Numbered from the stretch's first letter, positions 2,064-40,624 are shown. The stretch: DNA of 64,000 nt from an uncultured Klebsiella sp. (GCA_964555355.1 CAZKRY010000001.1:343177-407176); one strand, 5' to 3'. Numbers and translations: made by a program. Notes: generated by a model from the sequence alone, not told the origin.

Positions 2064-2921
2064 ATGTCCACTGCGCGTTTTACCGGTACCGATACGTACG
2101 TTGCGACCGACGATCTCATGATGGCGGTGAACGCCGCTATTGTGCTGACCCGTCCGCTGCTAGTGAAAGGGGAGCCGGGAACCGGCAAAACGATGCTCGC
2201 GGAAGAAATCGCCCGCTCACTCGACAGGCCGCTGATCCAATGGCATATCAAGTCGACCACCAAAGCGGCCCGTGGACTATACGAATATGACGCCGTTGCC
2301 CGGTTACGCGACTCGCAGTTGGGCGATGACCGCGTCAAAGACATTCGCAACTACATTCAGAAGGGCAAGCTGTGGGAGGCTTTCGAATCCAACGCGCAGC
2401 CGGTCTTGCTAATTGATGAGATAGACAAAGCCGATATCGAGTTTCCGAACGACTTATTGCAAGAACTCGACCGCATGGAGTTCTACGTTTACGAAACCAA
2501 GGAAACGATCAGGGCCACACACCGGCCGATCATCATCATCACCAGTAACAATGAAAAAGAATTGCCGGATGCGTTTCTGCGTCGGTGTTTCTTTCACTAC
2601 ATTCGATTTCCGGACCAGGAAACGATGGAGCACATCGTGCATGTGCATTATCCGGATATCAAAAAGCGCTTGCTCGCCGAAGCTTTGCAATGCTTTTTTG
2701 AGTTGCGCGATCTGCCCGGTCTGAAGAAAAAACCGTCCACGTCTGAATTGCTGGACTGGATCAAACTCTTGGTCGCCGAAGACATTCCGCCGGAAGCCCT
2801 GCGCGAGAAGGATTCACGCAAAGCGATCCCCAAGTTGTACGGCGCGCTACTCAAGAACGAACAAGATATGCATCTCTTCGAGCGGCTGGTGTTCATGTCG
2901 CGAGGTCGCGGTGCTAACTGA
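2064..2921 (+). CDS. MoxR-family AAA+ ATPase (CoxD/NorQ-like)
   Basis: Walker A GEPGTGKT, Walker B LLIDEIDK, sensor arginines; ~285 aa, the size typical of single-domain MoxR ATPases. It overlaps the downstream VWA gene by 11 nt. Confidence 0.85.
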   Translation: MSTARFTGTDTYVATDDLMMAVNAAIVLTRPLLVKGEPGTGKTMLAEEIARSLDRPLIQWHIKSTTKAARGLYEYDAVARLRDSQLGDDRVKDIRNYIQKGKLWEAFESNAQPVLLIDEIDKADIEFPNDLLQELDRMEFYVYETKETIRATHRPIIIITSNNEKELPDAFLRRCFFHYIRFPDQETMEHIVHVHYPDIKKRLLAEALQCFFELRDLPGLKKKPSTSELLDWIKLLVAEDIPPEALREKDSRKAIPKLYGALLKNEQDMHLFERLVFMSRGRGAN

Positions 2922-4095
2922 GTTTTTTTATCGCCTGCGCAAGGTACAAATACCGGTCTCGCTGACCGAGTATTTGACGTTGATGCAGGCGCTGGAAGCG
3001 CGTATCGCGGGTTTCAGCATCGACGATTTTTACTATTTGGCGCGCGCCACGCTGGTGAAAGACGAGCGCTATTTTGATCGCTTCGATCAAGTCTTTGGCG
3101 ATTACATCCGAGGCCAAACCACGGCGTTTGAACAAATTCTGGGCGAGATCCCGCTCGAATGGCTGCGTAAGCAAAAAGAACTGACGCTGACCGACGAAGA
3201 GAAAAAACTGATCGAAAGTTTGGGCGGCTGGGACAAGTTGATGGAGACGCTGAAGCAGCGTCTGGAAGAACAGAAGAAGGCGCATCACGGCGGTAACAAG
3301 TGGATAGGGACCGGCGGGACCTCGCCATTCGGCGCGCATGGCTATAACCCGGAGGGCGTGCGCATCGGGCAGCCCACCGGGCGCCAAGGGAAAGCGGTCA
3401 AGGTGTGGGATAAACGCGAATACCAGAACCTGGATGACCAGGTCGAACTCGGTACACGCAACATCAAAGTGGCGCTGCGTAAATTGCGCCGCTTCGCGCG
3501 CGAAGGGGCGGAAGAAGAACTCGATTTGGACGATACGATCCGCTCAACCGCGCGCCGCGCCGGCCTCTTGGATATCAAGCTCGTGCCCGAGCGGCGCAAC
3601 ACCACCAAGGTTCTGCTGTTCTTGGATGTGGGCGGCTCGATGGACCCGCACGTCAAAGTTTGCGAGGAGTTGTTCTCCGCAACACGCGCCGAGTTCAAGC
3701 ACCTGGAGCATTTCTACTTCCACAATTTTGTCTACGAGACGGTGTGGCGGGACAATCGCATGCGTAACAACCAGCGGTATCCGACGCAATCCGTGCTGAA
3801 TAAATACAGTGCCGATCACAAGGTAGTCTTTGTCGGCGACGCGACGATGAGCCCGTATGAAATCATGGCGGTGGGCGGCAGTATCGAACACTGGAACGAA
3901 GAAGCCGGCGCGACTTGGATGGGGCGCTTGCTCGCGCTTTACCCTTACGCGGTGTGGTTAAACCCGCAGCCGGAAGATTATTGGAGCTACATCCCGTCCA
4001 TTGGTATCGTTAAACAATTATTGGCCGATCGAATGTTTCCGCTGACGATCGATGGGTTGGAACGCGCGATGAAGGCGCTTAAAAAGGCGCACTGA
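2911..4095 (+). CDS. VWA-domain protein (CoxE-like), partner of the MoxR ATPase
   Basis: C-terminal von Willebrand A domain with a MIDAS motif (LLFLDVGGSMD). The N-terminal region resembles the CoxE family. Translationally coupled to the upstream MoxR gene. Confidence 0.75.
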   Translation: MLTEFFYRLRKVQIPVSLTEYLTLMQALEARIAGFSIDDFYYLARATLVKDERYFDRFDQVFGDYIRGQTTAFEQILGEIPLEWLRKQKELTLTDEEKKLIESLGGWDKLMETLKQRLEEQKKAHHGGNKWIGTGGTSPFGAHGYNPEGVRIGQPTGRQGKAVKVWDKREYQNLDDQVELGTRNIKVALRKLRRFAREGAEEELDLDDTIRSTARRAGLLDIKLVPERRNTTKVLLFLDVGGSMDPHVKVCEELFSATRAEFKHLEHFYFHNFVYETVWRDNRMRNNQRYPTQSVLNKYSADHKVVFVGDATMSPYEIMAVGGSIEHWNEEAGATWMGRLLALYPYAVWLNPQPEDYWSYIPSIGIVKQLLADRMFPLTIDGLERAMKALKKAH

Positions 4096-6582: not shown

Positions 6583-7233
6583 ATGACCCAGCAACGCGAA
6601 GAATCCCTCACTCTGGAATTGCTCTCAGCGATCGAAGCCAAGAGCGACGTCACTCAGCGCCATATCGCGGACCGCATGGGGGTGGCGCTCGGACTCGCGA
6701 ATTCCTACTTAAAACGCTGTGTGCGAAAGGGGTTGGTGAAAATCACCCAAGCACCGGCTAACCGTTATTTGTATTACTTAACGCCAACCGGGTTCGCCGA
6801 GAAAAGCCGCCTGACAGCGCAGTATTTCAGCTATTCGTTTGATTTTTATCGGCGGGCGAGTGCTTCCACGCGCGAAGCGCTCGCGCTCTGCGCTGAACGG
6901 AACTGGCGGCGATTGCTCTTTATCGGCACCTCTGAACTCGCGGAAATCGCGTTTGTGAGCAGTCATGACTTTAAGTTCGAAATTATTGGGACCTACGCCG
7001 CGGGAAGCGGACTTAAAGCTTTTCTGGGTAGACCGGTGTGGGAAGAAATTCCGCCGCTAGACAAGTTTGACGGTGCGATATTTTGCGCGCTGGATGGCCA
7101 CCAAGCGTGGTTTGAACGTGTTACCCAAGAGATTCCCGTTGAACGATTGGTTTTTCCGGAACTCGTTAAACCGCTCATGCCCGTAACCTCCAATTTTCAC
7201 GCGCCAACGCCGACGTCAGGCGCAAGGAGTTAA
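6583..7233 (+). CDS. Winged-helix-turn-helix transcriptional regulator at the head of the glycan locus
   Basis: N-terminal wHTH (SDVTQRHIADRMGVALGLANSYLKRCVRKGLVKI). The C-terminal ~120 aa are of unknown function. First gene of the + strand block. Confidence 0.5.
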   Translation: MTQQREESLTLELLSAIEAKSDVTQRHIADRMGVALGLANSYLKRCVRKGLVKITQAPANRYLYYLTPTGFAEKSRLTAQYFSYSFDFYRRASASTREALALCAERNWRRLLFIGTSELAEIAFVSSHDFKFEIIGTYAAGSGLKAFLGRPVWEEIPPLDKFDGAIFCALDGHQAWFERVTQEIPVERLVFPELVKPLMPVTSNFHAPTPTSGARS

Positions 7234-10043: not shown

Positions 10044-11039
10044 ATGGATATTCGCGGTAAGAAACTCGTGGTCATTGGTGGAGCCGGTTTAATCGGCTCA
10101 CACGCCGTTGATTTATTAACTAAGGAAGATGTCGGCGAAATCGTTATCTACGATAACTTCGTCCGCGGCACGACCGAAAATTTAGCGGGCGCGTTACGCG
10201 ATCCGCGGGTCAAGGTGTATGAAGCCGGTGGCGACGTTTGTCAGGCGGATATTCTCGATGCGGCGCTCAAAGGCGCGGATGGCGTATTTCATTTCGCCGC
10301 GTTGTGGCTCCTGCAGTGCCATGAGTTCCCGCGCGCGGCGTTTGACGTCAATGTGCGCGGCACTTTCAACGTGCTTGAGGCATGCGTCGCGAACAAAGTT
10401 CAACGCCTCGTCTACTCGTCATCCGCATCAGTCTACGGCGACGCGGTGGAAGAACCGATGACCGAAGACCACCCGTTTCTAAATAAGAATTTTTACGGCG
10501 CGACGAAAATTTGCGGCGAATCGATGGCGCGCGCCTATCACCATCGCTATGGACTGAACTTTGTCGGCTTACGCTACATGAACGTCTATGGCCCTCGCCA
10601 GGATTATCGGGGCGCGTATATCGCGGTGATCATGAAGATGTTGGACGCAATCGACAAAGGTGAGGGCCCAACGATCTTCGGAGACGGCTCCGAAGCTTTT
10701 GACTTTGTGGCCGTTGAAGACTGCGGCGCGGCGAATGTCTGCGCCATGAAGGCCGAGACGGTCGATCGCTTTTACAATGTCGGCACCGGCCATCGGACCT
10801 CTTTAAAAGAAATTGCCGAGCTACTGCTACGTCTATCTGGCTCGAAAGCTACCATCAATTACGCGCCCCGCAGTCAAGCGACGTTCGTTCGCAACCGGAT
10901 CGGCTGCCCGAAACGGGCAACGGCCGAAATCGGTTTTACCGCGAAAATCGCACTCGAAGAAGGCATGCGTCGAGTCATCGATTGGCGCAAGTCGCACATT
11001 GAGGAAGTGAACTCGCGTCGCGCGAAGGCTGCGAAGTAG
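10044..11039 (+). CDS. NAD-dependent epimerase/dehydratase (extended SDR; UDP-sugar 4-epimerase/decarboxylase-like)
   Basis: GGAGLIGSH glycine-rich NAD motif and catalytic YxxxK (YGATKICGE); ~330 aa. Confidence 0.8.
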   Translation: MDIRGKKLVVIGGAGLIGSHAVDLLTKEDVGEIVIYDNFVRGTTENLAGALRDPRVKVYEAGGDVCQADILDAALKGADGVFHFAALWLLQCHEFPRAAFDVNVRGTFNVLEACVANKVQRLVYSSSASVYGDAVEEPMTEDHPFLNKNFYGATKICGESMARAYHHRYGLNFVGLRYMNVYGPRQDYRGAYIAVIMKMLDAIDKGEGPTIFGDGSEAFDFVAVEDCGAANVCAMKAETVDRFYNVGTGHRTSLKEIAELLLRLSGSKATINYAPRSQATFVRNRIGCPKRATAEIGFTAKIALEEGMRRVIDWRKSHIEEVNSRRAKAAK

Positions 11040-11059: not shown

Positions 11060-12934
11060 ATGTGCGGAATTGCTGGGATTCTACACCTGGACGGCGCGCC
11101 CGCTTCGGTGACGTTGCTGCGCAGGATGACGGATTCAATCTCGCATCGTGGACCCGATGGCGAAGGTCATCACGTGGATGGGTCGCTCGCGCTAGGACAT
11201 CGACGCCTGTCAATCATCGACTTATCCGCTGCCGGCCATCAACCGATGGCGACACCCGATGGCCGCTACCTGCTTACCTACAACGGGGAGATCTACAACT
11301 TCCAGGAACTACGCACAGCGCTTGAAGCGCTGGGTCGCCAGTTCCGTTCGCGCACGGATTCCGAGGTGTTGCTAATGGGCTTCGCGGAGTGGGGGCTGCG
11401 CGTCCTGGACCGCCTGAACGGCATGTTTGCCTTTGCGATCTGGGACAAAGAAACCCGCACACTGACGCTTGCTCGTGACCGTTACGGTATCAAGCCGCTG
11501 TATTGGGCAAAGGTTGGCGCAACGGTTCTGTTCGGCTCCGAGATAAAGGCGATCCTTGCCCACGGTGCTATCAGGGCAAAACTCGATGGACCGGGTCTCC
11601 TCGAATACTTCACTTTTCAGAACTTTTTCACCGACCATACGCTATTCGACGGAGTGCGATTGTTGCCAGCCGGCACCTATTTGCAAGTCCGCGCCGACGT
11701 GCGCTGGACGCCATCGCCGGTGCGTTATTGGGACTATGATTTCAATGAACCCCTCGAGCGCATATCCGACGCGGAATACCTCGAAGAACTCGACCGGCTC
11801 TTCAAGCAGGCAGTGAACAGGCAACTAGTCAGTGACGTTGAACTCGGCAGTTACCTGTCCGGCGGTATGGATTCGGGTTCCATCACGGCGATCGCGGCGA
11901 GACAGATCCCTGATCTCAAGTCCTTCACGTGCGGTTTCGACCTACGCTCCGCGTCCGGCCTCGAACTGAACTTCGATGAGCGCCAAGCCGCCGAAGCGAT
12001 GTCCTATGAATTTAAGACCGAACATTATGAGATGGTGCTCAAAGCCGGGGACATGGAGCGTGTAATCCCGCGGCTGGCTTGGCACTTGGAGGAACCGCGC
12101 GTTGGCCAGTGCTACCCAAACTTCTATGCCGCGCAACTGGCAAGCAAGTTCGTCAAGGTAGTGCTATCCGGCGCGGGCGGTGACGAGTTGTTCGGTGGTT
12201 ATCCATGGCGCTACTACCGCGCCGTCGTCAACGACGATTTCGAACATTATATCGACAAGTATTATTCGTACTGGCAGCGCTTAGTCCCGAACAAGACCAT
12301 AAAGCAGCTGTTCGCGCCAATCTGGAGCGACGTCAAGGACGTTTGGACACGTGATATTTTTCGCGATGTCTTCGGTCATCACGCCGCTTCGCTCACGCGG
12401 CCGGAAGATTACGTCAACCACTCGTTGTACTTCGAGGCGAAAACTTTCCTGCACGGATTATTGGTGGTGGAAGACAAGATGAGTATGGCGCATTCGCTCG
12501 AAACGCGCGTGCCTTTCCTCGACAACGACCTCGTGGACTTCGCGACGCGCGTGCCGGTATCGCTGAAACTTGGCAACCTAGGCGAAGTGGTGAGACTCAA
12601 CGAGAACGAGCCTTCGCACAAGACGACCAAGTACTATCAGAAAACCAATGATGGAAAACTTTTATTGCGAAAGATGATGTCGCGGCATATCCCGGCGGAG
12701 ATCGCGGATCGTGAAAAGCAGGGGTTTTCCGCGCCCGATGCGAGTTGGTTCAAGGGAGAAAGCATCGACTACGTGAAACGCATGCTCTACCAGGGGCCGA
12801 CAAGCCTCTACAAATTCCTCGATCGCGGTACCGTTCATGGCTTAGTCGATGAGCACCTCGAAGGTCACGAGAATCGGCGGCTGTTGATCTGGTCGTTGCT
12901 GAATGTCGAGCAGTGGTGCAGGCATTACCTGTGA
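11060..12934 (+). CDS. Asparagine synthase (glutamine-hydrolysing)-family amidotransferase, WbpS/AsnB-like
   Basis: N-terminal MCGIAG (Ntn Cys2), GATase-2 domain, PP-loop SGGMDSGS. Confidence 0.85.
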   Translation: MCGIAGILHLDGAPASVTLLRRMTDSISHRGPDGEGHHVDGSLALGHRRLSIIDLSAAGHQPMATPDGRYLLTYNGEIYNFQELRTALEALGRQFRSRTDSEVLLMGFAEWGLRVLDRLNGMFAFAIWDKETRTLTLARDRYGIKPLYWAKVGATVLFGSEIKAILAHGAIRAKLDGPGLLEYFTFQNFFTDHTLFDGVRLLPAGTYLQVRADVRWTPSPVRYWDYDFNEPLERISDAEYLEELDRLFKQAVNRQLVSDVELGSYLSGGMDSGSITAIAARQIPDLKSFTCGFDLRSASGLELNFDERQAAEAMSYEFKTEHYEMVLKAGDMERVIPRLAWHLEEPRVGQCYPNFYAAQLASKFVKVVLSGAGGDELFGGYPWRYYRAVVNDDFEHYIDKYYSYWQRLVPNKTIKQLFAPIWSDVKDVWTRDIFRDVFGHHAASLTRPEDYVNHSLYFEAKTFLHGLLVVEDKMSMAHSLETRVPFLDNDLVDFATRVPVSLKLGNLGEVVRLNENEPSHKTTKYYQKTNDGKLLLRKMMSRHIPAEIADREKQGFSAPDASWFKGESIDYVKRMLYQGPTSLYKFLDRGTVHGLVDEHLEGHENRRLLIWSLLNVEQWCRHYL

Positions 12935-12958
12935 CCATGCGAAAGAACGGAATTCGAT

Positions 12959-13807
12959 ATGGAGTTTAGCCTCATAAACACACTGGCTCCGTCCTCAATC
13001 GCGCGCGCGTGCCGCGCAGCGTATATGACTTTAAGCGCAAATAGAGGCCTGGTTTTCGAGATGACTCGGCGAGACCTGAAGTCCCAATACGCCGGCCAAA
13101 TTATCGGGAATTGGTGGGTTGTGGCTCACCCTTTGTTTATGATGTCGCTCTACGTATTCGTGTTTGCGTACGTATTCAAAGTTAAACTGGGCGGGACTGT
13201 TGATATGCCGCTCAGTTACACGGCATATATACTCAGCGGTCTAGTTCCATGGTTGAGTTTCAACCAATGCATGGCGCGGGCACCGGTTGTTTTGCCGGGC
13301 CACGCCAATCTCGTTAAGCAGGTCGTGTTTCCTCTTGAAGTGCTACCCGCCACCGCAGTTCTACTCAATCTAATACCACTAGCAGTCGGTTTGGTCGTCC
13401 TTTTGGTACACGTGATATGGACGAACGGCCTCCCTCCAGCAACTTATTTGTTGCTGCCGTTGCTTGTTACGCTACAGATGATCGCAATGCTAGGTGTTTC
13501 ATTTGCGCTTGCGGCACTTGGTCCATTTGCCCGAGATACGAAAGATATTGTTCAGATCTTCGCGTTAGCCGGCAATTACCTGATGCCGATTTTTTACCTT
13601 CCCGAATGGGTACCGAACGCCCTGCGGCCTCTGCTTTACCTGAATCCGTTTAGTTATCTCACCTGGTGTTATCAGGACGCGCTTTATTTTGGCCGTTTCG
13701 AACATCCGATTGCGTGGGTGGCGAACACCGTGGGCAGTTTTCTCGTTCTGGCATGGGGATACTCTATTTTCCGTAGACTTCGACCGTTCTTTGGAAGCGC
13801 ATTATGA
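12959..13807 (+). CDS. wzm: ABC-2-type polysaccharide exporter permease (Wzm-like)
   Basis: Six predicted transmembrane segments. The RRDLKSQYAGQIIGNWWVVAHPLFMMSLYVFVF motif is typical of Wzm/KpsM permeases. The start could instead be the internal ATG about 66 nt downstream. Confidence 0.75.
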   Translation: MEFSLINTLAPSSIARACRAAYMTLSANRGLVFEMTRRDLKSQYAGQIIGNWWVVAHPLFMMSLYVFVFAYVFKVKLGGTVDMPLSYTAYILSGLVPWLSFNQCMARAPVVLPGHANLVKQVVFPLEVLPATAVLLNLIPLAVGLVVLLVHVIWTNGLPPATYLLLPLLVTLQMIAMLGVSFALAALGPFARDTKDIVQIFALAGNYLMPIFYLPEWVPNALRPLLYLNPFSYLTWCYQDALYFGRFEHPIAWVANTVGSFLVLAWGYSIFRRLRPFFGSAL

Positions 13808-15081
13808 GTTCCAACGAACTTGCAATTTCAGTTTCGAATTTGTGTAAGGCATATAACGTCTATAATTCTCCGCGCGATTTTATTGTCGAGACGATTACAT
13901 CAAAACCGCGCCACATTAAGCAGCTTGCACTTCGAGACGTATCTTTTGAGATCCGACGCGGAGAAATTGTAGGGATAATCGGATCGAACGGTGCCGGTAA
14001 GAGTACGCTGCTCAAAATCCTCGCGGGCACGTTAGACCGCACGAGCGGACAAGTCGCCGTTTACGGCAAGATTTCCGCAATTCTTGAGCTGGGCACTGGA
14101 TTTCATCCTGATTTCACCGGGCGCGAGAACATCATTATCGGCGGAATGTGTTTGGGCATGACCCGAGAGGAAGCTATTCGAAAAGCGCCTTCGATCATTG
14201 AATTCAGTGAGCTAGAGTCGGTAATCGATCAACCGTTTAAAACTTACTCTAGCGGTATGCAGGCGAGGCTGACATTTTCTACGGCGATCAGCATCGACCC
14301 AGACATTCTGATAATCGATGAAGCCCTCGCAGCAGGTGACGCATATTTCGTTAGAAAATCTTTGGCGCGACTACGAGAGATATGCCGCTCGGGCGTGACC
14401 GTGTTGTTGGTGACACATTCAACCGACATAATCGCGACGTTGTGTCAACGCGCTATCTGGCTCGGAGATGGCACGATTCGCATGGAGGGCCCCGCAAAAT
14501 CCGTTGCCAATGCTTATGAGTTAGATGTGGAACGACGAATTACTGCGGGATACAAAGACGCACAAGCAAGAACCTTCGCAAGTAAGGTAAGCGCTGACGG
14601 CGAAGCTTATAGCTTTCTACGCGCTGGGATCGATATCGTCCAATGCCGGGTAGAAGATTCAAATGGCCAGGAGCGAGAGTCATTCGCGCAAGGGGAGCCT
14701 CTACGCATAGTCATTCGGTGGCGCGGACAATTTGACGGAACGTTACATCCAGTTATCGGTATACGATCAACTAGTGGAGTTGTAAGTGGTTTCGTTGGCT
14801 GCGAGCATGGTGTCTATCTGCGGACGCCCAGCGGAGAGGGTCTTATTGCACTGGATATAATCGATCCACTTTATGGTCTCGGCGAGTACTCGATCTCGCT
14901 TTCACTAGTCCGCTCGGACCCCGTTCAAGCCTTAGAAGAGGAAGTGTGTTTCATTCGGAATGCAGCCAAATTCTACGTAAGGCGGCGATTTCCCCGAAGC
15001 TATTGCTATGCGTACGAACCCCGTGTTCGCTGGCGAGATAGCGACGGATGCGAAATCTCTTCACTCGAAATTGAGGCATGA
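13804..15081 (+). CDS. wzt: ABC transporter ATP-binding protein (Wzt-like) with a C-terminal glycan-binding extension
   Basis: Walker [13 protein letters not shown] signature YSSGMQARL, Walker B ILIIDEA. An additional ~170-aa C-terminal domain, as in O-antigen Wzt. ATGA overlap with wzm. Confidence 0.85.
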
Positions 15082-15084
15082 CTC

Positions 15085-16707
15085 ATGAATAAATTTCCCG
15101 AAAATATCCATCTGCGCGCGAGGTCAAACGAGTCGAGCTTAGCGTCAGGATTTTTGCGTGGCATGAGATGGTTTTCGAGCGCGTTCGCGAAAAAACCGAG
15201 AGCCGCGCGACTAATCGGATATCTTGTGGTCAGTAAACAGATTGATCAGTCGTACGAAGAGAAGCGGATCAAAAGAATTATTCACGAGTTACGCGCCAGT
15301 GGAACTACTCAATTTGCGGCGAGTGAACTTACTGGAAATGCGCAAATAGATTCACTGTTCAATGAAGTAATCCCGCTGCAGAAACTACCGACCGAATACG
15401 CAAATGATTTTGTCGTAATGTGTCCTACGAGTCAGTACCACGTCACGAACCTACATCTCAAAACAATGATTAGTGCTGCGCGCCTTAGCGGTAAAACATC
15501 TTGCTACCAGATCGTCGGCAGTGAATTTATAGGAAATATGGGATTGCACTTCTGCATAGCCGTTTTGGCGCCGCAATCCGCTAGCATTAATCCCGCCCGC
15601 TTGGGATATCTAAATTTTTGGAACGAGCAGACGCCATTCGACGATGAAACAACTGTAAATTGGCTGGAGATTTCCGACGCTGAGCTACGCGAAGCCTATC
15701 GAAGCTATGCAGAAATTGGTCGCCCTAAGACGGTTACCGTCGAACTCAATAGCACTTGTAACTTCAAATGCAGTTACTGCCCTTTCCACGGCGACGACAC
15801 AGAGAATCCCCTCTATGTCGGCCCGAAGTTAGGACGCGAAATGTGCCTTGAAGACTTCGCCAAACAGGTTCGGTCTGTCGCTGAATGGAAAGATGAATTC
15901 GATCCGCAGGTCGCAACTATTGCCCCGTTCTGGCGTGGCGAGTTTTTTATGGCGGGAAAATGGCAGGAAGCCCTCGCGGTGATAAAAGAGAACGGCCTAC
16001 GCTCATATGTATGCACAAATGGCTCGGTGCTGCGAAGGGATATCGTCGACACATTAATGAAGACTGGCCTGCTAGATCATTTAACCATTAGCCTTGACGC
16101 GACAGATGATGAACAGAACTGGGCTACACGTCGGAACGCAAAATTTGATCGTATTCAATCCATTATTGAATATGCGTTAAGTGAACGGGCTCGCTTGGCA
16201 CGGCCGATGACGATCGCGCTTAACTTCACGATCGTCACCGAAAACAAGGAAGCTATCGAAGCCTACGTGGAGCAGTGGGGATCAAAAGTAGATTACATTT
16301 TGATGGGACCGCGCCACAAAATGAATCCACAATCACTACATGGTGAATATGAGCAGGACTTGGTTCCATGGGAACAAGCGCCGATACCGATGCGGCGAGT
16401 TCCATGCGTTTATCTGGTTAATACCATATCTGTGAATTGTGACCAGGAGATGCATCTGTGCGCCCCGTGCGGTTCGCAACGAATCGAAGTTGCTAACGTC
16501 TCAAAGCGTGGGATAGCCGTTGAACGAAGTGAGTCGGTAAAAGTGAAAGAAACCATTAAATCCTTTGAAGATGGGTCTTTCGAAAATAATGATTACTGTC
16601 GGAATTGCAGCATGTGGCGATTCCACTTCCAGAGTAGAGAAGAGCGCATGGGCTACGCCTTTACGATGAACCCGCAGGCATGGACTATCACTCGTAAGCA
16701 GCTGTGA
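15085..16707 (+). CDS. Radical SAM protein with a ~220-aa N-terminal domain of unknown function and a Cys-rich (SPASM-like) C-terminus
   Basis: CNFKCSYC matches the CxxxCxxC radical-SAM cluster motif. The C-terminal cysteines (CVYL..C..C..CG; CRNC) suggest auxiliary clusters. Local GC is lower than in the flanks. Confidence 0.7.
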   Translation: MNKFPENIHLRARSNESSLASGFLRGMRWFSSAFAKKPRAARLIGYLVVSKQIDQSYEEKRIKRIIHELRASGTTQFAASELTGNAQIDSLFNEVIPLQKLPTEYANDFVVMCPTSQYHVTNLHLKTMISAARLSGKTSCYQIVGSEFIGNMGLHFCIAVLAPQSASINPARLGYLNFWNEQTPFDDETTVNWLEISDAELREAYRSYAEIGRPKTVTVELNSTCNFKCSYCPFHGDDTENPLYVGPKLGREMCLEDFAKQVRSVAEWKDEFDPQVATIAPFWRGEFFMAGKWQEALAVIKENGLRSYVCTNGSVLRRDIVDTLMKTGLLDHLTISLDATDDEQNWATRRNAKFDRIQSIIEYALSERARLARPMTIALNFTIVTENKEAIEAYVEQWGSKVDYILMGPRHKMNPQSLHGEYEQDLVPWEQAPIPMRRVPCVYLVNTISVNCDQEMHLCAPCGSQRIEVANVSKRGIAVERSESVKVKETIKSFEDGSFENNDYCRNCSMWRFHFQSREERMGYAFTMNPQAWTITRKQL

Positions 16708-17546
16708 TGCTGTCTGCGCGAGGGAATTCTGATATGACAGCGAAAAATGAATGGAAAGCGTCCCTTCATTCTTTCTTCGATCAGAGAGGTGGGGAGTTAT
16801 TGTCACATCCTACCTTGCAGGAGTTATGTTACGTGAGCGGTCGCGATCCGCGATTGTGGTCCGATCCCGTAATGTATGGCGATCTGATAAGAAGCATCGT
16901 TGACAGTCTGAGTGTCAGCAAATCGGCTTCGATTCTGGAAGTCGGCTGCGCGGCCGGATTTATCGCCAACGGCGTCGCCCCACTAGTTAAAAACTATATT
17001 GGTATCGACCTCGCGCGGAATGCTCTCGTTGCCGCAGGGAGGCTCGGTCTCCCCAATGCGGTGTTTAAGCATTCAGACGGAAGCTCCGTTCCACTTCAGA
17101 GTAGTTCCGTGGATGCGGCATTTTGTTACGACGTGGTAACCAACTTTCCCTCGTTCGACGACGTCGAGCCTCTAATTGCCGAAATGCTTAGAGTAGTTCG
17201 ACCTGGTGGTAAGGTCATGATTGGTTCCGTGCCGGATGCAGCTTGCCGGGATGAATACGAGCAGCGGATACAAGAGGTGGCAAAAGAACTCGATGCTAAA
17301 TTTGGTCCATCAGTACCACAAGTCAATGGTGTCAAGACGAATTCTCTCCTAAAGGGCGTGATTCGCCATTTATTTCGAAGACCGAGTGCACCGCCGCCGG
17401 CCATCTTTTGCTACTACTTTAGTCGAGCAGACTTTAGGGCGGTTGCGCAGCGTTTCGGGGTACGGTTGGTGTTTGGTGAAATCCACGAGATGAATCCGTA
17501 TCGAGGGCACCGCTTTAACGCAATTTTCCAACGTGTGGGGTCATGA
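16704..17546 (+). CDS. Class I SAM-dependent methyltransferase
   Basis: Motif I ILEVGCAAG, motif post-II VRPGGKVMIG. The GTG/ATG start overlaps the radical-SAM stop (GTGATG). Confidence 0.75.
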   Translation: MMLSARGNSDMTAKNEWKASLHSFFDQRGGELLSHPTLQELCYVSGRDPRLWSDPVMYGDLIRSIVDSLSVSKSASILEVGCAAGFIANGVAPLVKNYIGIDLARNALVAAGRLGLPNAVFKHSDGSSVPLQSSSVDAAFCYDVVTNFPSFDDVEPLIAEMLRVVRPGGKVMIGSVPDAACRDEYEQRIQEVAKELDAKFGPSVPQVNGVKTNSLLKGVIRHLFRRPSAPPPAIFCYYFSRADFRAVAQRFGVRLVFGEIHEMNPYRGHRFNAIFQRVGS

Positions 17547-18667
17547 GGCCGATAGCCCATGCATTAATTGATGCGGTCGATTGGGAAAAGACTTGCGGAC
17601 TTGCATCCGAAGCATGGCTTTTCCATCGATATGATTGGGTTGGAATAGAGGCGGACAATTGGGCGGAGTCAAATGCGTCATTCGCTCTCTTTGACAACCG
17701 AGGGATGATAGGAATTGCCCCGCTTTATGGCGTTGTTAGCGGCGACGAGCGCCTAGTACATTCCGGTATTCATCGCCATGCGGGCTTGGCACTAATCGAT
17801 GGCTTGTCCCTCGGAGACCAGCGCGCCGCGCGCGATGCATACATCAAGAGAGTTTTACGGGTGGCGCGCGACTTCGGCGCACACCGGATCCAATTGAATG
17901 CGCATAACCTGAGTCCGGCCATGCGCGAATTTCCCCGTGAAGAGATCCCGTTCTTCGTGCAGAACTATGGCTTTCATTCTGGCCTTGCCTTCGGTCCAAC
18001 CGGGATCCAGGCCGCACCCGGCATGTCCACGTGCAATGCCGATCAAATCGTCGATCTAGCGCCCTCCGAAGATCAGTTGTTCGCAAATCTTGACGAGGCC
18101 TGCCGCCGGGCGGTCCGCAAGGCGCAAAAAAGCGGGTTGAGCGCGCGTGAGGCCACGCAGGAAAGCGACGTTCGGGCGTACTACGCGCTGGCAGAACTAT
18201 CGGCACGTCGCACTGGCGAGACTTTGCCGCCATACGACTATTACGCACGCATCTGGAGAACGTTCCACGCCCGCGGTCATTGCCGTATTCTTTTCGCACA
18301 AATAGGCGGAGAGCGTCTCGCGGCATTGATGCTGTTCGCGGATCGCGGCGCGATGAACTTCGCGGCGGGTGTCACGGCGCCGGAAGCGCTGCCGCTGCGC
18401 GCCAATGATTTCTTGCACTGGGAGGCCATCCGCCTCGCAAAACGCGAACGCCTTTCGCACTACCGCCTCGGTCCGATTTTCCCGGAGGTACCGTCGTCCT
18501 GGCCGATTGCCATGGTGTCGCGTTTCAAGGGCAAATTCGGTGGCCGCTCGGTGCCGATCGTTCAAGGCAGTTTTTTTCTCGACCCCGCGCGCTATCTGCA
18601 GCAGGGCATCGCGCAGTTGACCGCGCTGTGTTCGCAACCGCGCGACGAAGTCGTGCAGGATGACTGA
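17543..18667 (+). CDS. FemAB/BioF2-like GNAT-fold acyl(aminoacyl)transferase-family protein
   Basis: ~370 aa with two GNAT-like halves, of a size and pattern resembling Fem/PF13480-type proteins. ATGA overlap with the upstream methyltransferase gene. Confidence 0.45.
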   Translation: MRPIAHALIDAVDWEKTCGLASEAWLFHRYDWVGIEADNWAESNASFALFDNRGMIGIAPLYGVVSGDERLVHSGIHRHAGLALIDGLSLGDQRAARDAYIKRVLRVARDFGAHRIQLNAHNLSPAMREFPREEIPFFVQNYGFHSGLAFGPTGIQAAPGMSTCNADQIVDLAPSEDQLFANLDEACRRAVRKAQKSGLSAREATQESDVRAYYALAELSARRTGETLPPYDYYARIWRTFHARGHCRILFAQIGGERLAALMLFADRGAMNFAAGVTAPEALPLRANDFLHWEAIRLAKRERLSHYRLGPIFPEVPSSWPIAMVSRFKGKFGGRSVPIVQGSFFLDPARYLQQGIAQLTALCSQPRDEVVQDD

Positions 18668-18696
18668 CAGTTAGCACAACTGAGACGATTCGAAGT

Positions 18697-20094
18697 ATGA
18701 ATTCCACCGACCACGACGCGGCGTTGGAACTGCTGAAGCATCTCGCGCGCGTATTCGGTCTCGCCCCAAGCGTGTTCGATTTGCAGCGCGCATGCGTCAT
18801 CCGCGGAAATCTTGCCGCGACGGGCGAAATTTCCCCACGCTGCGAACTCATCGTTCTGCTGGCACCCGATGCCGCGGCCTGTGCACAGCTCGATCTGGTC
18901 GCTTCAGTGCACCCACCGATATCGGATTTGTTTGCGGTCAACGAACGACCCTCGTTGCGCATGTCGTCGCTGCACGGTTATCAAACTTTTGTTGACGATA
19001 AGGGACACTGTCGGCCAGTGGTGCGGGATGCCGCGGGTCGCAACGCATGGATCGAAGTTGAGCAGGGCGGCCGTCGCTGGCTCGTGGTTGGCACAGCGCT
19101 TGTGGCTGACCTCGAACGCTTTCGTCAGGGTGACCCTGCGCGAGCCAACGATCGTTCGCAGAGTGCGAAATGGGATTTTGCGTTCGAGCGCCCGAACTAT
19201 CTGTTCGAGGCCCAGTTGCAGGGGCTCGATGCGCGCGTGCGCCACGCGGACTACTGGTGCGAAACGCTCGTCGGCGCGATTGCCGGCGCCATCCCGACAG
19301 CGCGAAGGCCGATCCTGCCGGGCGATGCACCGGGCGCGCTCGTGATCACCGGCGACGACGATCAGGCTTACCTCGAAAAATATGCGGCACAGCAGGAGGC
19401 GCTTGCAGGACTGCCAATTACCTATCTGATGCATCCGCTGACGCGACATGACCGCCAGAGCGCCAGGCGCATGTTTGGATGTCGACGAGTGGAACTCGGC
19501 ATCCATCCGGACGCGCTCGAGACGCCTTCGGCGTATGGCTCTCGGCTCGATGAACAAGTCCGTTGGTTCGAGTCTCGTTTTGGCTTTAGAGCCACGAGCG
19601 TGCGCAATCACGGCTTTCTCAACGATGGGTATTGGGGACATCTACCCGCTTGGCAGACCGCAGGAATCCATATCAGCTCAAATATTCCGGGCTTGGACGG
19701 TAATTTGTTGAACGCATCAATGTTGCCAGGGCGCGTACTGTTCGATGGCGTCTTGTCATCGCACTGGTCCGTTCTGACGACATTTGGCGACGGCATGGTG
19801 TTCGCGCTTGGCTTATCGGACATGGCGGCGTCGGCGCGCGTCGGCGACAGCGCCGCCGCGATCGTCGCGTCCCGCGTGCCGGGCGTCATCGTCGTAAATC
19901 TCCATCCGCAGAACATTGACAGCACTCGACGGATTCACGATGTCCTGCGCGAGATTGCACAAATGGGCTTTGTAGCGTGGACGCTCGCCGATTGCTGGCG
20001 CTGGTTCAATGAACTTGATCGGCGCGAAACGCCGCGGCCGTTCCTACACCGAGCGGCAGTGACTGCGCGCAGTCTGTTGCGAGTAAGATCGTGA
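18697..20094 (+). CDS. Hypothetical protein; the C-terminal half resembles the polysaccharide deacetylase/CE4-like fold
   Basis: ITGDDD, HPD, RNHG and NLHP motifs are spaced as in NodB-type deacetylases. The N-terminal 200 aa are of unknown function. Confidence 0.35.
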   Translation: MNSTDHDAALELLKHLARVFGLAPSVFDLQRACVIRGNLAATGEISPRCELIVLLAPDAAACAQLDLVASVHPPISDLFAVNERPSLRMSSLHGYQTFVDDKGHCRPVVRDAAGRNAWIEVEQGGRRWLVVGTALVADLERFRQGDPARANDRSQSAKWDFAFERPNYLFEAQLQGLDARVRHADYWCETLVGAIAGAIPTARRPILPGDAPGALVITGDDDQAYLEKYAAQQEALAGLPITYLMHPLTRHDRQSARRMFGCRRVELGIHPDALETPSAYGSRLDEQVRWFESRFGFRATSVRNHGFLNDGYWGHLPAWQTAGIHISSNIPGLDGNLLNASMLPGRVLFDGVLSSHWSVLTTFGDGMVFALGLSDMAASARVGDSAAAIVASRVPGVIVVNLHPQNIDSTRRIHDVLREIAQMGFVAWTLADCWRWFNELDRRETPRPFLHRAAVTARSLLRVRS

Positions 20095-21683
20095 CTTTTG
20101 TTAAGACTGCCACTTTGTCCTGGTCCGCGAACCTGCAAACTGGCTGGCGTAACTATCAATGGCGCAGGCTGAACGGATTGCGCGAAGCGCAACGGTTGGA
20201 GGTGTTGTGGCGCGGTGCTCCACCGGTTGAGCGCTTCGACTCCTGGGACCCGGCTCCATGGCGTCACCCGTGGCTCACTCCGGATAATCTACGCGCAATG
20301 CGCGACTACAGCGAAACGTGCCTCACACGTTGGCAACACGAAGCCGACACGCCTCATGTCGGGCAATCGGAACGCTACGCGTTCATCGGCAACCTCGCGA
20401 ATAACATGTACATGCGTGCGCGTCCGCTGCGCCGGCTTGGCCTCGACATCGACGTCTATTTGCACCCTCAGGATCACTATGTGATGAGCCAACCGGGCTG
20501 GGAGGAATTGCACGGACTGATCGAAAGTTCCGAGACAGATATGCGGCGGTTGCGTGAGCAGGGGGTAACCCTGCCAACGGTGCCTGGAGTCTATCAGTCG
20601 CCAGAGTCCGCACCGATTTCCGCGCAAGAGGCATATCTACGCTACCCGCATTTGTCGGCGCGCGATGTCCTGCGTTGGCTGCCATACCTGAACGGACACG
20701 ACTGGCTGCATGAACTCGCGGGCTACGACGCATTGCTGTGCGCACAGTCAACCTTCGTCGGATTGTTGTCCGGCCAACCGTATGTGGCCGCGCACGTCGG
20801 CGGCGATATCTGGTATGAATGTTCGCGCGGCGACTTACTCGGCAGGCTGCAACTCGAAGCCTATCGTCGCGCTGCGGTAATGCTCGCGTCGAACCCGTGG
20901 AGCTTCGCTCACGCGCGACGCTACGGCTTGTGTAACGCCATCTATGTCCCGCTGGTACTCGACGAAGAGTTCTATGCGCCAGGTCCGAGCCCGTTTCGCC
21001 AGACCTGGATGAACTCGAGCGGTGGCGACTTTTTTGTGTTCAGCGCGGTTCGTCAGAACGATGCGATTAAGGGAACGCTCACCGGACTCGAGGGCTTCGC
21101 GCGTTTCGCAGCGAACCGGCCGGGCGCCAGGCTGGTCATCGTCGAATGGGGCCAGCAGTCCGACCTCAATCTAGAACGGTTCGCAGCACTCGGTATCAGC
21201 GACAAAGTTATCCGTGTGCCGATTGCCGGAAAGCGGCGCGTTGTCGACTACCTGCGTTCGGCCGACTGCTCAATCGACCAGTTTACGCTCGGCTATTACG
21301 GCGCTAGCGCCCTCGAGGCCATGGGTTGCGGCCTGCCTGTCATCATGCGTATCGAACACGCGCAGTACGCCGCATTATGTCGCGCCGGTGCACCGCCGGT
21401 GGTCGAGGCGGCGACAGCCGGAGAAGTTGCCTCGGCGCTTGAACGGTTAAGAGCGAACGTCGATCTTCGTCGCGCCACAGCGAGTGCGCAGCGAGATTGG
21501 TTTGTGGCCGCCCATGGGGCCAAGGCCTGGTATCCGGCGCTCGTGGCGATGTTGCGTGTGACAGCGACTGGGCGTCGGGAGCGCTTCGCGCATTCACCGC
21601 TGCGGATGCGTCTTTCGACGGTAGAACGCGACTATCACACGCAGGGTCTGGCCCGCGCCCCGAAATTTCCAAACTATCAATGA
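20091..21683 (+). CDS. GT-B fold glycosyltransferase (GT4-like), paralog 1 of 3
   Basis: N-terminal IGNLANNMY motif shared with the other two paralogs. C-terminal donor-binding domain (EAMGCGLPVIM). GTGA overlap with the upstream gene. Confidence 0.55.
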   Translation: MTFVKTATLSWSANLQTGWRNYQWRRLNGLREAQRLEVLWRGAPPVERFDSWDPAPWRHPWLTPDNLRAMRDYSETCLTRWQHEADTPHVGQSERYAFIGNLANNMYMRARPLRRLGLDIDVYLHPQDHYVMSQPGWEELHGLIESSETDMRRLREQGVTLPTVPGVYQSPESAPISAQEAYLRYPHLSARDVLRWLPYLNGHDWLHELAGYDALLCAQSTFVGLLSGQPYVAAHVGGDIWYECSRGDLLGRLQLEAYRRAAVMLASNPWSFAHARRYGLCNAIYVPLVLDEEFYAPGPSPFRQTWMNSSGGDFFVFSAVRQNDAIKGTLTGLEGFARFAANRPGARLVIVEWGQQSDLNLERFAALGISDKVIRVPIAGKRRVVDYLRSADCSIDQFTLGYYGASALEAMGCGLPVIMRIEHAQYAALCRAGAPPVVEAATAGEVASALERLRANVDLRRATASAQRDWFVAAHGAKAWYPALVAMLRVTATGRRERFAHSPLRMRLSTVERDYHTQGLARAPKFPNYQ

Positions 21684-22744
21684 GCAGCGAGCTGACTGTC
21701 CGTTACTACCTAGCAGGCGAGCTGCCGATGGCCGAATACGAAGGCTGGCTCGCGAACCGCCGCAACGCGCTGATCTACGCCGCGCCGATGTTCCATCGCT
21801 TCCTCGGTGCGGCGGTTGGTGGTGAGTGTCATTATTTGATCGCGCGGCGCGGAGATTCGCTATGCGGTGCGCTAGCATTTTTTAGACGCGATGTGCTGGG
21901 CATCGGCTGTGTCGTCAACAGTCTACCCTGGTACGGCACACACGGTGCTTGCATTGGTGTCGACGCAGACGATGTCGCTACCCGAGTTTCTCTTATCGGT
22001 ACTTTCCGCGATTACACGCGTGAGGCGCGACCACTGTCATCGACGCTAATCCTCACGCCCGAAGAATCGCTGCACGCTGACGAGTACACAGCGGGCCAAG
22101 CGCACGTCGTTACCGATGGTCGTATTGGACAGTGGACGCGTCTGCCGCAAAGCGGCAGTGCACCTGATCTTGCGGCGACATTGCTGCAGAAAACTCGTAA
22201 CCTCGTCAACAAGTCACTACGCCAAGGCTTTCGCGAAGAAATTGGGGATGAATCAGACGCAGCGTGGGAATTTCTCGGTAACGTGCATGCGGAGAATCTA
22301 CGGGCGATAGGCGGCAAGGCAAAACCATGGGCGCATTTCGAAGCCTTACGTGCTGAGATCCCGCTACCACATCGCCGCTTAACGATCGCCTGGCTCGGCG
22401 ATGAACCCGTTGCCGCACTCCTGCTTCTCGCGTTTAACGAGACAGTGGAATACGTAACTCCGGTGATCCGGGCCGAGTATCGTTCGCAGCAACCGCTGTC
22501 GTTTTTGATCTGGCAAGGCATGCTCTGGGCTATGCAGCAAGGTTTTCGCTGGTGGAACTGGGGCGGTACCTGGAGCACCCAGACGAACCTACTACATTTC
22601 AAGGCGGGTTGGGGCGCGCTCGAACGGCCGTACACTTATGTCATCAGCGCATCGCCGGACGCGCTCACGCAGTTTCGTACGGGGTTCGACGAACTCGCAC
22701 AGGCTTTTCCTTACTACTACCTTTATCCGCACGGTAGTCTTTGA
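21680..22744 (+). CDS. FemAB/BioF2-like GNAT-fold acyltransferase-family protein (second copy)
   Basis: The start is reset to ATG 21680, whose ATGA overlaps the upstream stop; the ORF-track start 21497 would overlap the upstream gene by 190 nt. Similar length and architecture to 17543..18667. Confidence 0.45.
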   Translation: MSSELTVRYYLAGELPMAEYEGWLANRRNALIYAAPMFHRFLGAAVGGECHYLIARRGDSLCGALAFFRRDVLGIGCVVNSLPWYGTHGACIGVDADDVATRVSLIGTFRDYTREARPLSSTLILTPEESLHADEYTAGQAHVVTDGRIGQWTRLPQSGSAPDLAATLLQKTRNLVNKSLRQGFREEIGDESDAAWEFLGNVHAENLRAIGGKAKPWAHFEALRAEIPLPHRRLTIAWLGDEPVAALLLLAFNETVEYVTPVIRAEYRSQQPLSFLIWQGMLWAMQQGFRWWNWGGTWSTQTNLLHFKAGWGALERPYTYVISASPDALTQFRTGFDELAQAFPYYYLYPHGSL

Positions 22745-23808: not shown

Positions 23809-24807
23809 TTGGACGAACCAATACGAGTCGAACAGCTGCGAAAGGATTCTCGTCTGGAGCACCGTCTCGCGGAGGTGAACGCGCTGCTGGCTCCCGTCGA
23901 GGAAAAGTTGCAACACGAGATTGCTGCGGTCGAGCCTCCGTTGGTATTCGTCGTCGGTATGGCGCGGTCAGGCACGACGCTCGCCGGTCAGCTCTTGGCG
24001 AGCGCTGGGTTTGGTTATGTTAGTAATTTCGTGGCCCGCTTCTGGCGTGCACCCGCACTCGGCGCGACTTTGCAACGCACGGTGTTGAAGGTTGGAGACG
24101 CACTGAGCAGTAGCTTCCAGTCACACCATGGGGTGACGGATGGTTGGTTCGAACCGCACGAGTTCGGGTATTTCTGGGACCGCTGGTTCGATCTGGGGCA
24201 GGCCACGCACAAGCTTGATGTCGAACTGCGTTCGCGTGTCGATCGGGAGGGCCTCCATCGCGCGGTGAGTGCGCTACAGCAGGTGGAAGGGCGTCCCTTT
24301 ACCTTTAAGAACAATACGTGGTGCAGCCTACAGGCAAGTTGGTTGGCAAACCTTTTCCCGCGTTCGATCTTCGTGGTGTGTCGTCGTCCGGCGTGCTGGA
24401 TCGCGCAGTCGCTGTGCCTCGCGCGCGAGGAACGTTATGGCAGCCGCGATAGCTGGTGGTCGATCCGCCCGAGTACCTACGCGTCGTTCGTCGGGTTGCC
24501 GTGGTGGGAGCAGATCGCCGCACAGGTCATCGATTTCGACATTGAGATGGATGCCGAACTGACGCAGATCCCGTCCAGTAGGCTCATCGAAATCGAGTAT
24601 GGCGATTTATGTGCCAACCCTCGCGGGCTTATTGCACGGACCGCCTCGCAACTCCTGGGCATGGGGATACAATTCACCCCGGTGTCCGAACGAATTCCCG
24701 AACGACTCGCGTCGCGTGATACCCAGCGGCTCGTCGATGCAGACTGGCGGCGACTTAACGACGCAATTGAACAGCGGGCACAGTCCCGTCAGCGCAAGGT
24801 GACTTGA
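23809..24807 (+). CDS. Sulfotransferase-family protein (PAPS-dependent)
   Basis: 5'-PSB P-loop-like motif VVGMARSGTT near residue 45, and a downstream RxxxxS-type region; ~330 aa. Confidence 0.6.
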   Translation: MDEPIRVEQLRKDSRLEHRLAEVNALLAPVEEKLQHEIAAVEPPLVFVVGMARSGTTLAGQLLASAGFGYVSNFVARFWRAPALGATLQRTVLKVGDALSSSFQSHHGVTDGWFEPHEFGYFWDRWFDLGQATHKLDVELRSRVDREGLHRAVSALQQVEGRPFTFKNNTWCSLQASWLANLFPRSIFVVCRRPACWIAQSLCLAREERYGSRDSWWSIRPSTYASFVGLPWWEQIAAQVIDFDIEMDAELTQIPSSRLIEIEYGDLCANPRGLIARTASQLLGMGIQFTPVSERIPERLASRDTQRLVDADWRRLNDAIEQRAQSRQRKVT

Positions 24808-40149: not shown

Positions 40150-40622
40150 GCAAACATCACGTTGCCGCGAAAGTGAATGGCGACCCTGTCGAATTTTTGT
40201 GTGAAACCGAACAAACGCTGCTGGATGTTCTGCGCGATGAACTGGGGCTTACGGGTTCAAAAGAAGGCTGTGGCTCGGGCGATTGTGGCGCCTGCAGCGT
40301 GCGCGTCGACGGTCGTTTGGTGTGCGCTTGTTTGGTGCTTGGCGCCGAAGTCAACGGCTGCAAGATAGACACCATCGAAGGTGTCGCGCAGGGCGCGGAA
40401 CTTCACCCCTTACAGCAGGTCTTTCTTGAAGAGGCAGCGTTGCAATGTGGGATCTGCACGCCGGGGATTATCGTCGCGGCCAAGGCGCTGCTCGAGAAGA
40501 ACCCTGACCCATCCGAAACCGAGATCCGCTTTTGGCTTGCCGGTAACCTGTGCCGTTGCACGGGGTACGACAAAATCGTGCGGGCAGTACAGAAAGCAGC
40601 AACCGTCATGAGGAGCGCATAA
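40146..40622 (+). CDS. [2Fe-2S]-binding (small) subunit, CoxS-like
   Basis: Two Cys clusters ([11 protein letters not shown]; CGICTPG...CRCTGY). Overlaps the medium-subunit gene stop. Confidence 0.85.
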
Positions 40623-40624
40623 AC

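Follow-up and report, generated by a model that had tools for sequence, protein, structure and literature searches.

Cap-dependent export by WzmWzt, the ATP-binding cassette (ABC) transporter formed by the permease Wzm and the ATPase Wzt, is a model for the measurement and release of finished polysaccharide chains. Only a few caps are known: methyl, methyl-phosphate or phosphate, and 3-deoxy-D-manno-octulosonic acid (Kdo). We analyzed 64,000 nucleotides (nt) of DNA from an uncultured Klebsiella sp. (GCA_964555355.1 CAZKRY010000001.1:343177-407176; this whole stretch is referred to as the window), in which a block of low GC content (positions 12959 to 17546) encodes Wzm, Wzt, a radical S-adenosylmethionine (SAM) enzyme (rSAM), and a SAM-dependent methyltransferase (MT1). 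We propose with moderate confidence, from gene content and comparison of related loci, that the block is an export and chain-end-modification cassette of an ABC-dependent surface-glycan cluster and represents its horizontally exchanged specificity part. The new element of the block is a rare two-domain rSAM coupled to a Wzt that bears a carbohydrate-binding domain (CBD); the remainder is a recognizable kind of cassette.

Comparison with described systems

Cap-dependent export involving the CBD is established for Aquifex aeolicus and Escherichia coli O9a (PMC9445017). The exporter of A. aeolicus (8dku/7k2t) and that of E. coli O9a, which operates with WbdD, resemble the window in having two exporter genes, a Wzt with a nucleotide-binding domain (NBD), hinge, and jelly-roll CBD, a methyl pocket in which the aromatic and small residues keep their character, and a methyltransferase encoded nearby. 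In contrast, the window CBD is only ∼20 to 30% identical to theirs and differs in the polar residues that contact the sugar, a radical SAM gene lies between wzt and the methyltransferase gene, and the polymer is likely a diamino-uronic acid glycan rather than a mannan or rhamnan. Unlike WbdD, MT1 is a small stand-alone class I enzyme without kinase or coiled-coil parts.

The transport/elongation/termination (TET) operon of Pseudomonas syringae (wzm-wzt-glycosyltransferase-methyltransferase) is exchanged horizontally within the conserved common polysaccharide antigen (CPA) locus (PMC7820976). Like the block, it is a variable cassette that combines a Wzt_C-type exporter and a methyltransferase within a conserved sugar biosynthesis locus, and components are fused in both families (glycosyltransferase-methyltransferase in the TET operon and Wzt-methyltransferase in P0096, a protein from one of the loci related to the window). 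The low-GC block differs in having no polymerizing glycosyltransferase and in having a radical SAM enzyme instead. A corresponding exchange between strains is presumptive for the window.

The Bordetella wbm loci (PMC3849452; PMC2279256) share with the window short-chain dehydrogenase/reductase (SDR) epimerases, AsnB-like amidotransferases, a WbmS-like protein, and Wzm/Wzt, and the middle of the locus is likewise of low GC content with inferred horizontal transfer. The middle regions of these loci are also highly divergent and are predicted to function in terminal-sugar modification (PMC3849452). Species-representative genomes were scanned with Wzt, and the loci fetched (L numbers below) were compared with all proteins of the window cluster by tblastn. 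The Bordetella hinzii locus (L021) encodes homologues of Wzm (50% identity), Wzt (45%), and the epimerase Epi1 (55%) and amidotransferase Asn1 (68%) that flank the block upstream but, unlike the window, has no homologue of rSAM or MT1 in the fetched locus.

The radical SAM enzymes BtrN, DesII, BlsE, and SpeY share with rSAM the canonical CX3CX2C motif and conserved C-terminal cysteines. They are only 13 to 17% identical to it and lack its additional ∼200-amino-acid (aa) nucleotidyltransferase-like N-terminal domain, and they function in antibiotic biosynthesis, whereas rSAM is encoded in a polysaccharide exporter locus.

Exporter and carbohydrate-binding domain

The wzm gene (12959 to 13807; plus strand, as are the three genes that follow) encodes a 282-aa ABC-2 permease of a glycan exporter (Pfam ABC2_membrane, E = 2e-15) and adjoins a gene for a Wzt/TagH-type ATPase; the pair is assigned to a Wzm/Wzt exporter. 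The NBD of Wzt (residues 1 to 245; 13804 to 14538) matches Pfam ABC_tran, NCBIfam Wzt/TagH-type ATPase models (E = 1e-54 to 1e-58), and the NBD of A. aeolicus Wzt (E = 3e-59), and its identity to 84 relatives is flat, at 58 to 68%.

The CBD (approximately residues 256 to 412 plus a tail; 14569 to 15081) was less readily recognized by domain models. The window Wzt scores 21.2 bits for Pfam Wzt_C, under the cut-off of 30.4 bits, and relatives that are 46 to 56% identical to it over the full length score 40 to 58 bits in the same region. A profile of 85 family members aligns to full-length A. aeolicus Wzt without a break across both domains, NBD and CBD (E = 1.6e-101). An AlphaFold2 model (predicted local distance difference test [pLDDT] score of 91.5; predicted template modeling [pTM] score of 0.84) is all-beta at residues 259 to 412, and its best Foldseek match is full-length, O-antigen-bound A. 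aeolicus Wzt (8dku_A; E = 6e-39, TM = 0.71/0.76 over 410 columns). An earlier note on this DNA, made from the sequence alone, had named the four genes as wzm, wzt, radical SAM, and methyltransferase genes, placed the methyltransferase two genes 3′ of wzt, and described a C-terminal Wzt extension of ∼170 aa in which a carbohydrate-binding-like beta-sandwich was to be expected. Pfam and NCBIfam models agree with these identities, the gene order is as described, the extension spans ∼175 to 185 aa beyond the NBD, and the sandwich is present in the model, in the Foldseek match, and by profile homology. Taken together, profile and predicted structure identify the extension as a true CBD, belonging to the type by which modified non-reducing ends are bound.

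The published cap pocket (PMC9445017) was mapped onto the Wzt family by an alignment at low identity, so that the mapping is tentative. The methyl-pocket positions keep their character: T346, A348, and W362 of A. aeolicus correspond to S365, S367, and F383, and the position equivalent to W362 is Y or F in 79 of 85 relatives. Together with the replacement of sugar-contacting residues described below, this pattern would tentatively fit a similar binding mode with a different ligand.

A rare radical SAM enzyme encoded next to wzt

The rSAM gene (15085 to 16707) encodes 540 aa comprising a nucleotidyltransferase-like N-domain (approximately residues 43 to 200), a radical SAM core, and a Cys-rich SPASM/twitch-like C-domain. 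The motif CX3CX2C (C225/C229/C232) lies in a partial TIM barrel, as in the radical SAM superfamily; C310 and five cysteines of the C-domain (C441, C459, C462, C505, and C508) are also invariant, and the ∼200-aa N-domain is conserved. The C-domain may be of the seven-Cys SPASM or the four-Cys twitch type, both of which bind auxiliary Fe-S clusters. Pfam SPASM does not match the window protein, its divergent L001 homologue does have such a match, and NCBIfam SPASM/twitch models match well below their cut-offs. Structural neighbors (scores in parentheses) are of the SPASM/twitch type: SuiB (18.7), BlsE (18.4), BtrN (17.2), anSME (17.1), and DesII (16.7). Those acting on sugars include BlsE, BtrN, DesII, and SpeY. 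The N-domain has the nucleotidyltransferase-fold proteins CofC-like 2i5e (12.4), GlmU (11.7), IspD (11.2), and KdsB (11.0) as neighbors.

The family is tiny, with eight proteins in an index of 5.8 billion sequences and 19 cluster representatives (E ≤ 1e-30) among 1.84 billion, roughly 17 of which are full-length two-domain proteins; a metagenome scan with the rSAM alignment yielded only four remote matches (25 to 27% identity) and added nothing. In all seven orthologues with a resolved upstream neighbor (the window included), the rSAM gene is directly 3′ of a CBD-bearing wzt, and a further homologue, P0003, is encoded at the end of a contig in a locus of the same type. Of the genes considered, rSAM shows the closest association with wzt and with CBD similarity, a relation that the earlier note had missed. 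A literature search for a link of radical SAM enzymes to Wzt-dependent export or to the capping of O antigens yielded only Xanthomonas papers in which the terms occur together without being related.

Two metagenomic contigs (P0004 and P0018; JGI 3300047160) carry a second radical SAM gene (479 to 480 aa) just 5′ of wzt in addition to the downstream one, and one of the two contigs also has an adjoining NTP_transferase gene.

The methyltransferase

MT1 (16704 to 17546) is a class I SAM-dependent methyltransferase (Pfam Methyltransf_11/25) of 262 to 280 aa, depending on the start codon. Translation likely starts at ATG 16707 or ATG 16734, the latter preceded by a Shine-Dalgarno-like GAGGGA, and not at GTG 16704. 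The earlier note had called the methyltransferase gene overlapping; with such a later start, it would share no more than a few bases with the rSAM gene. The Pfam NodS match is just over its cut-off, and matches in the PDB are generic class I methyltransferases only, with NodS among the best. MT1 was considered as a WbdD homologue and rejected, because similarity to WbdD was not detectable; it is a single-domain protein of 262 to 280 aa and does not have the build of a WbdD-type terminator. It may nevertheless work like one.

A functional link between Wzt and MT1, as expected if a methyltransferase supplies the cap, gains support from recurrent adjacency (L083, L086, and the P0016 contig) and from P0096, a 689-aa protein of a syntenic locus in which the NBD and CBD of Wzt are naturally fused to a methyltransferase. 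The C-terminal part of P0096 shares 44% identity with MT1 (E = 4e-78), as much as stand-alone orthologues do; orthologues of MT1 in L001, L002, L003, L013, L082, L083, and L086 are 36 to 44% identical to it. It always neighbors a FemAB-like gene, an association that had not been noticed before. Among Wzt-subfamily neighbors, rSAM and MT1 recur immediately beside wzt, with MT1 even being fused to it.

A variable slot in related loci

Upstream of the block are genes for the SDR epimerase Epi1 (10044 to 11039) and the AsnB-like amidotransferase Asn1 (11060 to 12934), both on the plus strand, as are those downstream for Fem1 (17543 to 18667; FemAB/GNAT-like, Pfam Acetyltransf_6/FemAB) and unk465 (18697 to 20094; a 465-aa protein with no Pfam hit), which are of normal GC content. 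The order Epi1-Asn1-Wzm-Wzt is conserved in Alphaproteobacteria, Planctomycetota, Nostoc, B. hinzii, Legionellales, and others, with identities in syntenic loci of 55 to 83% for Epi1, 44 to 73% for Asn1, and only 37 to 58% for Wzm. The content 3′ of wzt varies. Wzt is followed by Fem1-unk465 in L004 and L005, by MT1, a FemAB-like protein, and fused Fem1::unk465 in L013, and by MT1 in L086; in L082, a Wzt::MT1 fusion precedes a FemAB-like gene. The order Wzt-rSAM-MT1-Fem1::unk465 is found in L083, likewise in L001 with a divergent rSAM, and in the P0016 contig as far as it extends, and L085 has Wzt-rSAM-Kelch-glycosyltransferase-Fem2-sulfotransferase. As in the TET operon, exporter and terminal-modification genes are co-located, and rSAM and MT1 are each present or absent between the Asn1 and Fem1 flanks. 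This variable slot between conserved flanks indicates that the block was not inserted into an otherwise unrelated locus.

One locus (L081; Bradyrhizobium sp. Pha-3, CP170152.1, 8692 to 14279) carries a lone low-GC Wzt(+CBD)-rSAM pair without wzm or a glycan cluster, flanked by a BrnT/BrnA toxin-antitoxin pair and an IS481-like transposase gene; it looks like a mobilized remnant of the cassette.

The six CBDs most similar to that of the window (35 to 42% identity versus a median of 28%) have an orthologous rSAM gene adjacent in five cases and MT1 in three, and in MT1-bearing loci with a different or absent rSAM (Gemmataceae and L001), CBD similarity is only at the median. Such a pattern would be expected if the CBD coevolved with the enzymes encoded beside it.

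The Fem1 and unk465 genes, separate in the window (17543 to 20094), form a single protein of 837 to 879 aa in three loci (L001, 4816 to 7455; L013, 13328 to 15841; L083, 12360 to 14960) and are probably one functional unit; they always follow Wzt, rSAM, or MT1 in syntenic loci. A Kelch-repeat beta-propeller gene occurs after rSAM or Fem1 in L001 (6819 to 8558) and L085 (11235 to 12035) and is absent from the window.

Base composition of the block

The GC content of the block is 0.498, compared to a mean of 0.578 for the window. It is the lowest among all windows of the same size (the minimum is at ∼13101) and ∼7 standard deviations (SD) under non-overlapping windows of that size elsewhere (0.587 ± 0.012). 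Per kilobase, it is 0.483 to 0.516 across 13 to 17 kb versus 0.53 to 0.62 in the rest of the window, and by gene it is 0.506 for wzm, 0.503 for wzt, 0.481 for rSAM, and 0.515 for MT1. The difference is most pronounced at third codon positions, where the GC content (GC3) of the four genes (0.49 to 0.54; 0.544 for wzm) comprises the four lowest values of the 46 genes in the window, the remainder having 0.654 ± 0.037. The dinucleotide-signature distance between the block and the rest is high but not unique (75.8, compared to 46 ± 14.5 with a maximum of 78.8 for other segments). Two-boundary likelihood segmentation of the cluster delimits a low-GC segment from 12243 to 17773 (0.502 inside and 0.584 outside), and the transitions are gradual, being spread over a few hundred bases, with the upstream one beginning in the 3′ end of Asn1.

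A similar dip recurs in other hosts. The GC content of wzm/wzt is below that of Epi1/Asn1 in 25 of 32 loci with the Epi1-Asn1-Wzm-Wzt order (mean difference, −0.026; SD, 0.034); the difference is −0.052 in the window, a depth equaled or exceeded in seven loci. The slot of Bradyrhizobium macuxiense (L013) has the same borders as that of the window and a GC content of 0.53 to 0.545 between flanks of 0.595 and 0.608. The rSAM gene is lower than its locus in L081 (0.529 versus 0.629), L083 (0.437 versus 0.594), L084 (0.557 versus 0.586), and L085 (0.371 versus 0.426). The nearest relatives of the block proteins are only 41 to 58% identical. The best-matching loci are L082 for Wzm and L086, L084, and L081 for the CBD; segment-wise rank correlations for a breakpoint between wzm/NBD and CBD were not significant and, with n = 6 to 11, were underpowered.

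The earlier note had claimed a GC dip, flanks of 60 to 65%, and mosaic acquisition of the module. The computed profile, with its minimum in both GC and GC3, bears out the dip, and the figure for the flanks is about right downstream (0.59 to 0.61) but too high upstream (0.55 to 0.56). Mosaic acquisition stands in part: the dip is real, the low-GC slot is recurrent, and there are published precedents, but there is no sign that exactly these four genes were acquired as a discrete unit, given synteny across both borders, tight packing, the lack of repeats, tRNA genes, or insertion sequences (IS), and a slot that is of low GC content in many homologous loci. The most economical reading may be that the slot is an exchangeable specificity cassette of this family of loci.

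Proposed function and alternative explanations

We propose that the enzymes encoded after wzt (rSAM, MT1, and probably Fem1::unk465) would build or decorate the terminal residue of the glycan and that a dimer of the CBD would bind this residue and hand the finished lipid-linked polymer to the Wzm channel, thereby licensing export. The rSAM would most likely be a sugar-modifying SPASM/twitch enzyme whose N-domain may hold a nucleotide-sugar or the glycan end, and candidate chemistries are oxidation (as in BtrN, SpeY, and DesII), decarboxylation (BlsE), and epimerization. MT1 would add an N- or O-methyl group. The low GC content would reflect the history of an exchanged specificity cassette, swapped by recombination in the conserved flanks, and not a recent mobile-element insertion. 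A narrower version, in which rSAM itself creates the non-reducing-end modification read by a coevolving CBD and the Wzt-rSAM pair is a mobile specificity unit, is offered tentatively and is rather unlikely.

The position of rSAM and MT1 beside wzt could alternatively reflect operon packaging, with both enzymes tailoring a precursor sugar or internal repeats, for example, by methylating, oxidizing, or epimerizing each residue, and the CBD reading another feature, such as a Fem1/unk465-derived residue or the backbone. We consider this rather unlikely: the fusion of Wzt, CBD, and MT1 argues for action at the transporter, the similarity of the CBD and not that of the NBD tracks the presence of an orthologous rSAM or MT1, and rSAM has stayed with wzt in L081, where the rest of the cluster is gone. 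Nevertheless, the nucleotidyltransferase/nucleotide-sugar-binding fold of the rSAM N-domain suggests action at the nucleotide-sugar level, and tailoring of precursors would also fit the constant pairing of MT1 with a FemAB-like gene, the retention of Fem1-unk465 with a related Wzt and CBD but without MT1 and rSAM in L004 and L005, and the presence of a second methyltransferase (27642 to 28433) in the cluster. It is highly improbable that rSAM is a SPASM-type peptide or protein maturase, like those of ribosomally synthesized and posttranslationally modified peptides (RiPPs) or anSME, with no relation to the glycan despite its place in the cluster. One metagenome annotation does name an rSAM homologue “sulfatase maturation enzyme AslB,” but the N-domain has a nucleotidyltransferase fold and is not of the RiPP recognition element (RRE) type, the 3-nt gap to wzt and the overlap with MT1 leave no space for a precursor-peptide gene, and every resolved homologue lies directly after wzt in the same kind of glycan locus. 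A role as a RiPP maturase was rejected on these grounds (no RRE domain, no precursor open reading frame [ORF], and a gene always in glycan loci). As to the GC content, the dip could result from weak codon or GC selection, combined with AT-biased mutation, in genes that evolve fast, are weakly expressed, and were inherited vertically in place. Distant phyla share the gene order across both borders, these borders are tightly packed and free of scars, the transitions are gradual and begin inside Asn1, the same genes are low across hosts in proportion to host GC content (rSAM is at 0.37 in a locus of 0.43 and at 0.53 in one of 0.63), and the block proteins are also the least conserved of the cluster. 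We still consider this explanation somewhat unlikely, because the drop is mostly synonymous and lies 3 to 4 SD under every other gene of the window, even those cluster genes that are likewise poorly conserved; moreover, the gene content of the slot differs among syntenic loci (rSAM and MT1 present or absent, with an extra FemAB-like gene), the Wzt-rSAM pair is isolated near an IS element in Bradyrhizobium, and phylogenetic incongruence has been described for cases of this kind (PMC7820976 and PMC3849452).

Several observations also weigh against the proposed export and chain-end-modification cassette. The hydroxyl- or sugar-contacting residues N313, H350, and H355 of A. aeolicus Wzt and Y233 of its hinge are replaced in the window family; as the sugar contacts are not conserved, the identity of the ligand is not readable from sequence. 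No WbdD chain was found among the PDB matches of MT1 (E ≤ 0.01), and MT1 is therefore not a WbdD-family terminator; it is also absent from some loci with a related Wzt (L004, L005, and L085). The closest CBD (L086; 42 to 46%) is encoded next to MT1, with no rSAM gene interposed. The CBD-coding end of wzt lies directly beside the rSAM gene, so that their co-variation could be mere linkage, and it was seen in a small sample that is not phylogenetically independent. The horizontal-transfer part of the proposal is weakened by the continuous synteny, gradual GC change, and tight, unscarred junctions already described and by the lack of a donor above 56% identity.

Gene cluster and other genes of the window

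The block sits within one long co-directional cluster (∼6583 to 36194) that opens with a gene for a MarR/HTH_24-like winged-helix regulator (6583 to 7233), followed by genes for WbpB-, WbpD-, and WbpE-like enzymes and then Epi1, Asn1, Wzm, Wzt, rSAM, MT1, Fem1, and unk465. Encoded further downstream are GT4 glycosyltransferases, a second FemAB-like protein, two more DegT aminotransferases, a sulfotransferase, the second methyltransferase, a WbmS-like protein, a second epimerase, and a second AsnB-like enzyme. This set of gene families suggests that the polymer consists of 2,3-diamino-uronic acids or amides and resembles that of the Bordetella wbm type. Asn1 and wzm are separated by 24 nt and wzt and rSAM by 3 nt; wzm and wzt share an ATGA overlap, and MT1 and Fem1 have a 4-nt ATGA overlap. 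No tRNA genes were found in the window, and neither 11-mer repeats flanking the block nor IS elements at its borders were present. Promoter-like sites in the window were fewer than in shuffled sequences (2 versus a mean of 10.6), and terminator-like sites were at the shuffled level (22 versus 21.2).

A winged-helix regulator (33 to 37% identity) also opens the L013, L082, L083, and L085 loci, and a NusG-like gene beside it in L083 suggests operon-specific antitermination. The Sulfotransfer_3 gene (23809 to 24807) is conserved in L083 (15412 to 21029) and L085 (917 to 1429 and 14709 to 15698), where sulfate activation genes (CysN/C, CysD, and adenosine 5′-phosphosulfate kinase) are nearby, and the glycan is probably sulfated. 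The ORF of the second FemAB-like protein (21497 to 22744; TTG start) overlaps the preceding glycosyltransferase gene by ∼190 nt; its homology to relatives begins at approximately residue 80, so that the true start is probably near 21680. Unrelated genes of the window encode a 1,212-aa protein resembling, under the cut-off, a kinase/cyclase fusion of thiazole/oxazole-modified microcin (TOMM) systems (59864 to 63502), a PhyH/chlorinating-enzyme-like protein (37529 to 38389; minus strand), molybdenum hydroxylase subunits (39286 to 42889), and a MoxR-like AAA plus VWA pair (2064 to 4095).

Implications

If rSAM only tailors a precursor sugar, the block would be an ordinary variable O-antigen cassette. 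If it helps to make the cap, new chemistry would be added to the few caps described to date, radical chemistry would enter chain termination and quality control, and CBD, rSAM, and MT1 would form a compact three-part system. The recurrence of the low-GC slot from Planctomycetota to Alphaproteobacteria illustrates how modules of surface-antigen specificity may move between very distant bacteria.

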